Made by a program: the position numbers and the translations under genes | From: Escherichia coli | GTDB taxonomy: Bacteria; Pseudomonadota; Gammaproteobacteria; Enterobacterales; Enterobacteriaceae | Strand: one strand, 5' to 3' | DNA length: 974 nt | NCBI RefSeq assembly: GCF_003334815.1 | Contig: NZ_QOWO01000111.1 | The notes under the pieces: model-generated | Database searches by the model: none | The model's input: the letters and a program-made list of their open reading frames with translations, nothing else | Told to the model about the DNA's origin: nothing | Part shown: piece after piece, positions 53 through 89 of the stretch | Layout of the letters: each line of letters begins with the position of its first letter | Position numbering within the stretch: the stretch's first letter is position 1

Positions 53-89
53 ACCCAACATGTTGTTTCCTTAAGGTTCTCACACCAGA

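Follow-up and report, generated by a model that had tools for sequence, protein, structure and literature searches.

Sequestration of the Shine-Dalgarno (SD) sequence in a leader hairpin is an ordinary restraint on transposase synthesis in mobile elements. A stem-loop in the tnpA 5'-UTR of IS200 was reportedly described by Beuzon et al. in 1999, fold-back inhibition in IS10 and IS50 is said to go back to Davis, Simons and Kleckner in 1985, and the control of expression in IS21 (R68.45) was reportedly addressed by Reimmann in 1989, Schmid in 1998, and Berger and Haas in 2001. To our knowledge, the setting of transposase level in IS21-type elements is known only for the split promoter and for occlusion of the ends by IstA. 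In IS200 an SD-sequestering leader stem-loop has been demonstrated to repress transposase translation (PMC4513863; Ellis, Trussler and Haniford 2015): the stem-loop is part of the element's own transcript, is constitutive, blocks 30S binding and keeps transposase low. The secondary structure of the tnp mRNA 5'-UTR is reported to regulate transposase expression in ISPpu9 also, an element that belongs to a different IS family and uses two sRNAs in addition (PMC8450116). Control of IS21 (R68.45) comprises a split -35/-10 junction promoter, occlusion of the ends by IstA and dual starts for transposase and cointegrase (PMC10122671), i.e. the published mechanisms act on transcription and on the choice of isoform.

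The DNA analysed here (974 nt, hereafter the window) belongs to an IS21-family insertion sequence, of which it covers the left end, the leader and istA as far as codon 291, and its leader is predicted to form a hairpin that would act on translation. Like that of IS200 tnpA, this is a cis-encoded stem-loop within the left end of the element with the SD in its 3' strand, and the same mode of action is proposed for it here; whilst the IS200 structure has been probed and mutated, the window hairpin is predicted. Control of IS200 also involves an antisense sRNA (art200), Hfq and a terminator upstream; none of these is seen in the window, whose minus strand lacks promoter-like sites and which has no match in Rfam. 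Unlike the IS200 stem-loop, the window hairpin would bury, besides the SD, the start codon and an additional ribosome-binding site within the coding sequence, and its 5' arm is at the same time a presumed transposase-binding repeat. What the window shares with IS10 and IS50 is pairing between the translation-initiation region of the transposase gene and an inverted repeat close to the IS end; in those elements, however, the native start follows the 5' arm and only foreign transcripts are silenced, whereas in the window the presumed start (~28) precedes the 5' arm (43-72), and native and junction-promoter transcripts would be affected too. In the searchable literature, outside which the founding IS21 papers fall, we found no description of a leader RNA hairpin for IS21, and an earlier description is possible.

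Identity and left-end architecture of the element

The open reading frame from the ATG at 102 matches NCBIfam NF033546 (transpos_IS21) with 280 bits against a cutoff of 160, as expected of an IS21-family IstA, and more than 3,000 plasmid records in PLSDB match the window. A full copy on an E. coli IncN plasmid (L001), which is 99.8% identical and annotated 'IS21-like element IS21 family transposase', occupies 1501-3631 of its record (2131 bp), ends on the right with ...GGCGTTGACA and lies between the copies of a 4-bp TCTT duplication. It encodes a 390-aa IstA and then, beyond the extent of the window, an abutting istB (265 aa), which is the istA-istB arrangement of IS21. The window and L001 together display the terminal inverted repeats (TGT...ACA) with L1/L2 and R1/R2 that characterise IS21 ends; L2 agrees with L1 at 9/12 positions when aligned at window 43, and the right-end repeats in L001 are R1 = TGTCAACGCCA and R2 = TGTCCGCTTTT. 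Sequence hallmarks shared with IS21 (R68.45) are a -10-like TGATATAAG on the left, a -35-like TTGACA at the right tip, L1/L2, an ATG eight codons downstream, a length of 2131 bp, a 390-aa IstA and a 265-aa IstB, and the element is IS21 or an IS21 isoform. IS100, our first guess at its identity, was ruled out, its IstA being only 34% identical. The features of the left end are as follows.

1-25, plus strand: left terminal inverted repeat with repeat L1; it starts TGTCAGCGCCA, is read as TGTCAGCGCCAGTG... and matches the L001 right end TGTCAACGCCACG...
13-21, plus strand: extended -10-like TGATATAAG, inside L1, read by eye
43-67 (end at about 67), plus strand: second terminal repeat L2, presumed IstA-binding site; it starts TGTCCGCTCCA and in full is TGTCCGCTCCACCCAACATGTTG
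89-94, plus strand: SD sequence AAAGGA serving the first istA start; in the predicted hairpin it belongs to the upper helix (3' strand)
102-104, plus strand: first istA start codon (AUG1), read from the sequence
102-974, plus strand: istA coding sequence, first 291 codons, with the NF033546 match; the reading frame continues past the window end
126-128, plus strand: second in-frame ATG (AUG2, codon 9), at the position of the cointegrase start; just outside the hairpin, with GAGG eight nt upstream

In IS21 the -10 box lies in the left terminal inverted repeat and the -35 box in the right one, and this split promoter is strong only when the two ends abut (PMC10122671). By eye, the right tip of L001 finishes with TTGACA (-35-like) and the left end of the window has TGATATAAG, a combination that fits the published split promoter and on which the istA transcription start is placed near 28. 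This putative start, whose position is taken from the -10-like hexamer only, agrees with the sequence-only reading, which had taken the 5' UTR to begin near 28, in keeping with the extended -10 at 13-21. A consensus promoter scan of the window alone gave no promoter-like site on either strand, and none between 28 and 101. With the TTGACA tip (L001 3620-3631) and TGATATAAG (window 13-21, 15 nt in from the left tip), a 2-3 bp junction between abutting ends would yield a near-consensus promoter with a 17-18 bp spacer, like the published IS21 tandems.

Several observations concern the minus strand. In L001, PGAP annotates a 'hypothetical protein' at 1217-1561 (window ~1-61) that spans the plasmid flank into the IS left end, and a minus-strand ORF of the window (30-251) resembles it; both ORFs are most likely spurious. 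At 140-154 a GC-rich inverted repeat, GCGCCCTGCTGGCGC, is followed by a T-rich run and is terminator-like, at chance level (1 found against 1.1 expected).

The palindrome and the predicted leader fold

The sequence-only reading had singled out a perfect 8-bp palindrome at 69-76, between the terminal repeats and the ribosome-binding site, and had allowed that such a palindrome may arise by chance. It was right on both counts. The word CCTTAAGG is present there, as a single occurrence over both strands, 3' of L2 (43 to ~67) and 5' of the istA SD (89-94), and palindrome numbers are at chance level: there are 5 perfect 8-bp palindromes in the window, where shuffles have 3.75 (P = 0.32), a 101-nt leader contains one or more with P = 0.30, and one falls in the 35 nt separating L2 from the ATG with P = 0.09 in shuffles, the expectation of 0.01 applying to the exact word CCTTAAGG only and not to palindromes in general. 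No third terminal repeat was found over the palindrome, the best matches to the L1/L2/R1/R2 core in 1-140 lying at 1, at 43 and at minus-strand 120, with none at 66-90.

RNA folding of 28-125 gave a single long hairpin with a minimum free energy (MFE) of -27 kcal/mol and z = -2.85, 1/200 dinucleotide shuffles being as stable, and an identical hairpin was predicted in the longer contexts 1-220 and 28-220. The predicted structure spans 44-119 in three tiers at about -26 kcal/mol, with z about -3, and has the following parts.

44-57 (L2) with 106-119 (codons 2-6), plus strand: lower helix, covering GAGAGGA (112-118), the ribosome-binding site for the ATG at 126
59-65 with 98-104, plus strand: middle helix, CAUGUUG with CAACAUG, covering the start codon at 102-104
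68-72 with 90-94, plus strand: upper helix, UCCUU with AAGGA, covering the SD core
75-86, plus strand: cap or apical mini-hairpin, GGU (75-77) with ACC (84-86) around a 6-nt loop (78-83)
66-72, plus strand: anti-SD strand UUUCCUU, of which UCCUU (68-72) pairs with AAGGA (90-94) in the MFE structure
43-67, plus strand: 5' arm of the lower and middle helices, i.e. L2 as RNA; as inverted repeat I1, 44-65 pairs with 98-119 and is 77% complementary to it
98-119, plus strand: 3' arm of the middle and lower helices, running through the spacer, AUG1 (102-104) and codons 2-6, in which the internal SD GAGAGGA (112-118) lies
69-76, no strand: palindrome CCTTAAGG; 69-72 are the last bases of the anti-SD strand, 73-74 a two-base internal loop that varies, and 75-76 the first bases of the apical stem

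In this prediction the halves of the palindrome pair not with each other but with two different distant partners, A73/A74 forming an internal loop; the best reading is that the palindromic symmetry of CCTTAAGG is incidental, and that the signal lies in its long-range pairing partners. The idea that a leader structure might sequester the ribosome-binding site is borne out as far as prediction goes, SD and start codon both being base-paired in a stable leader structure. The SD core (90-94) has a paired probability of 0.93, compared with 0.59 after shuffling of 28-86 (0.93 is reached in 6% of shuffles), that of AUG1 is 0.998 (attained in 0.6% of the same shuffles), and both are paired at 0.9 or above in only 0.8% of them. 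A cruder test on pairing of a 9-nt 'SD window' against shuffles was not significant, whereas that on the 5-nt core plus AUG was. The calculated energy required to open 88-107, the first ribosome-binding site, is 12.5-13.4 kcal/mol (6.8 kcal/mol for the SD at 89-94), and that for 111-131, the second site, is 6.5-7.5 kcal/mol (0.3-0.7 kcal/mol for AUG2 at 126-128).

A further palindrome, the perfect 10-bp CAACATGTTG at 56-65, lies inside L2 and recurs as CAACATGCTG at 98-107 across the start codon (direct repeat D10). Since the motif is self-complementary, its two copies pair, with AUG1 buried. Unlike CCTTAAGG, CAACATGTTG is widely conserved in the enterobacterial group; other lineages replace CAACATGTTG/CAACATGCTG by GCATGGCC/GGCCATGC, GGGGC/GCCCC and similar pairs.

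In the mechanism we propose, the anti-SD strand (the palindrome's left half together with the U residues 5' of it) and CAUGUUG would hold the SD and the start codon in duplex, so that few 30S subunits would be able to load, whilst in the lower tier L2 (44-57) would lie on codons 2-6, which carry the ribosome-binding site of the cointegrase start. As the 5' arm lies downstream of the sole -10-like element, the hairpin would be present in read-through and junction-promoter transcripts alike, and since it is thus expected in all istA transcripts it would be a constitutive brake of the IS200 kind rather than a read-through-specific fold-back of the IS10/IS50 kind. We infer that the istA leader folds in this way in cells and that translation is lowered as a result.

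Comparative evidence and competing explanations

Homologous leaders were drawn from plasmids, from one genome per species, from viral contigs and from metagenomes (scanned with a DNA pattern anchored on codons 3-11 only and excluding the common Tyr-8 variants), yielding 32 distinct leaders that span near-identical copies to environmental elements with a clearly diverged IstA N-terminus. A search with L021 gave no sequence closer than 72%. The perfect palindrome occurs in 7/32 distinct leaders and its symmetry is lost in the other 25, where CCTTGAGG, CCTGATGG, CCTTGTTGG and the like replace it. Among 29 enterobacterial copies, positions 69-76 read CCTTGAGG in 15, CCTTAAGG in 8, CCTGATGG in 3, and GCTGATGT, TCTTAAGG and CCTTATGG in 1 each; the environmental groups have TCTTGAAGG, CCTTAATGG, CCTTGTTGG and CCTTGAAGG. 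It is the flanks of the palindrome, TTTCCT and GGT, that are fixed, the centre (72-74) being variable, with an entropy of ~1.0-1.2 bits over 72-74 compared with 0-0.2 bits over 75-77. No change occurs at T66, T67, T71, G75 or T77 and little at C69, C70 or G76, 68-70 overall being nearly invariant. GGT (75-77) and ACC (84-86) are invariant or nearly so, and the apical loop varies at 78-81 and 83. Taken across 66-86, GGT-N6-ACC, A82, T66, T67 and T71 are thus invariant or nearly invariant in 32 diverged leaders in which adjacent bases vary; this may exceed the obvious need of a 3-bp stem, and the ribosome, a protein or an IstA footprint may read these bases.

Each of the 32 leaders, folded alone, gave the same three-tier architecture, with a median z of about -3.3 (range -1.1 to -5.3). 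Both strands of the pairing have been replaced in several of them: GGCUUCUCU/GGAGAAGCC in L023, GGGGCUUUCCUU/AGGGAAGCCCC in L065, GGCCUUUUCUU/AAGGAAAAGG(C) in L064, UUGUUUCCUU/AAGGGAACA in ISEc62 and GUUUCCU/AGGAAAC in L014. Plain MAFFT alignment of all leaders left the environmental group out of register, and a covariance-model alignment of all 32 was used instead, with the model built from the close set and antisense matches left out by a stricter E-value. In this alignment 92.3% of cells hold standard pairs, two-sided changes fall in 31 cells compared with 11.1 +/- 2.6 in shuffles (0/500), and the covariation score is 0.163, no control with partners shifted by 1-3 columns exceeding 0.080. 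In the upper (SD) helix two-sided changes occur at 3/4 pairs with 96.9% of cells paired, and pair 63:100 appears as UA, GC, UG, CG, GU and AU across lineages, 63-65/98-100 showing up to six standard pair types. Compensatory changes are thus present in the SD-sequestering hairpin, in an alignment that is fitted to the model structure and composed of related sequences, for which reasons the shuffle statistics are inflated; when the 21 close sequences were aligned with MAFFT alone, double changes fell at 4 pairs, equal to the control slid by -1.

The tiers differ in what this comparison says of them. Each arm of the lower helix is under other constraints, in L2 those of IstA binding and in codons 4-6 those of the encoded protein and of the internal SD, and synonymous recoding of codons 2-6 ranked the native hairpin 84/864 in the window and 116/288 in L064, i.e. 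without a strong codon-level selection signal for the hairpin. The GGU/ACC cap does not vary, so comparison neither supports nor contradicts the apical stem. The most convincing part is therefore 59-72 with 90-104, whose 3' strand is the non-coding SD-ATG spacer running into the start codon and most of whose 5' strand lies beyond the recognisable L2 core. The numbers of G-U and A-C cells (37 vs 31) do not tell sense RNA from antisense RNA or a DNA cruciform, and an Rfam search gave no match at the gathering score, with three chance-level matches far below it. As to decaying copies, the most divergent enterobacterial example (L023 from Pectobacterium, 2001-2840) is a frameshifted pseudogene, and in two metagenome copies (L065, at 4640-4650, and L081) ATA replaces the first ATG and the istA ORF is only 260 aa; all three retain an intact, very stable leader hairpin.

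We regard a conserved, regulatory leader hairpin as probably real on these predictions and comparisons, and assign a probability of about 0.62 to the reading that it attenuates istA translation in cis, in the manner of IS200, and would thereby keep IstA synthesis low. The sequence-only reading's suggestion that the palindrome could be part of a leader structure modulating translation gains support from prediction and comparison, the left half being the anti-SD strand of a predicted hairpin kept in 32/32 leaders, whilst the palindromic symmetry itself appears incidental. Equally, conservation of the palindrome among related leaders, which it had proposed as a check, holds for the flanks but for the palindrome itself in only 7/32. 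The whole might nevertheless have no function, with a chance palindrome and a hairpin that is a by-product of the L2 repeat, of N-terminal codons carrying an internal SD and of a pyrimidine-rich spacer. The chance-level palindrome counts, the independently constrained arms of the lower helix, the invariant apical stem, the lack of strong optimisation under synonymous recoding and the inflation of the shuffle statistics by relatedness are all consistent with this; however, 59-72/90-104 lies mostly outside L2 and coding sequence and has undergone two-sided changes yet stays paired in several lineages, the same fold appears in 32/32 variants with z down to -5.3, and SD and AUG are jointly paired in 0.8% of shuffles, so that we consider a mere by-product unlikely. 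Fold-back as in IS10 and IS50, where it is a known strategy, would confine the hairpin to transcripts entering from outside, messages from the element's own promoter lacking the 5' arm and being translated. The position of the 5' arm near the IS end is compatible with such a scheme, as is the putative nature of the element's transcription start, but the only -10-like sequence, TGATATAAG at 13-21, is upstream of the 5' arm (43-72) and is matched with a right-tip TTGACA as in the published promoter (PMC10122671), and the scan of 28-101 gave no promoter-like site on either strand. The arm thus lies downstream of the presumed start near 28, not upstream of it as in IS10 and IS50, and fold-back of this kind appears distinctly improbable.

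Two explanations at the level of DNA or transcription fare less well still. The palindrome was also suggested to be a protein-binding site, i.e. an operator for a dimeric protein, either IstA (as a third terminal repeat) or a host factor; it is a perfect dyad, adjoins the IstA-binding repeats just 5' of the ribosome-binding site, and binding of IstA to the element ends has been proposed as autoregulation of expression (PMC10122671). A site for a dimeric protein would keep its symmetry, whereas the CCTTAAGG site does not: the dyad is perfect in only 7/32 distinct leaders and gone in 25/32, variation is greatest at the central bases, the sequence is unlike L1/L2/R1/R2, and the two halves co-vary with separate distant partners rather than mutually. 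The operator reading is disfavoured accordingly, and we hold it to be very improbable. It is less probable again, indeed scarcely credible, that the hairpin and the CUUUU at 120-124 constitute a weak intrinsic terminator or attenuator aborting transcripts before istA. The GUCC/GGAC base of the stem is directly followed by four or five U in most variants (five in several relatives), but the stem is long and interrupted, a terminator scan raised no flag at 120-124, the U run is short, forms a Phe codon and is replaced by CUUUCUC or CUUCUC in other lineages, and termination inside codon 7 would remove both IstA isoforms.

The second start, distant relatives and significance

The cointegrase isoform of IS21 is IstA without its first 8 residues (PMC10122671), and AUG2 is at the corresponding position in the window. 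Seven distant IS21-family elements (L036-L042), whose IstA proteins are 32-38% identical and whose leaders are not alignable with that of the window, were compared with it. In 6/7 (IS100, ISKpn7, ISPsy4, ISEc57 and the Arsenophonus and Sphingopyxis elements) the SD lies in a hairpin just upstream of the ATG, e.g. CUCUCCUGAUUCAGGAGAG in IS100 and GUCUCCUGAUGGGAGGC in the Sphingopyxis element; the seventh, from Mycetohabitans, has an uncertain annotated start and was left out of folding. The same six elements have GGAG in codons 4-5 together with ATG or GTG at codon 8, from which a dual-start design looks to be family-wide. Furthermore, in ISKpn7, ISPsy4, ISEc57 and the Arsenophonus element the end of an L2-like repeat, CCUGGG or CUUGGU, has its pairing partner, CCCAGG or ACCAAG, in early codons overlapping or next to the internal GGAG, a hint, from four sequences only, that the design of pairing L2 with codons is general in the IS21 family. 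RNAalifold on these four leaders, too few sequences for the method, returned only the CYUGG/CCARG base helix.

A more far-reaching proposal, which we put forward tentatively and think rather unlikely, is that the hairpin may be a family-wide device, composed of the transposase-binding repeat L2 and the initial codons of istA, that would occlude the two istA starts unequally (~13 vs ~7 kcal/mol, with AUG2 free) and in this way set the ratio of transposase to cointegrase. If this were true, the hairpin would also determine how simple insertion is balanced against fusion of replicons.

Resistance and virulence plasmids of enterobacteria commonly carry IS21-type elements. A conserved hairpin burying the ribosome-binding site would add a translational layer to IS21 control, would explain the conserved spacer between L2 and the ATG, and would offer a way to act on IstA output and perhaps also on the transposase:cointegrase ratio.
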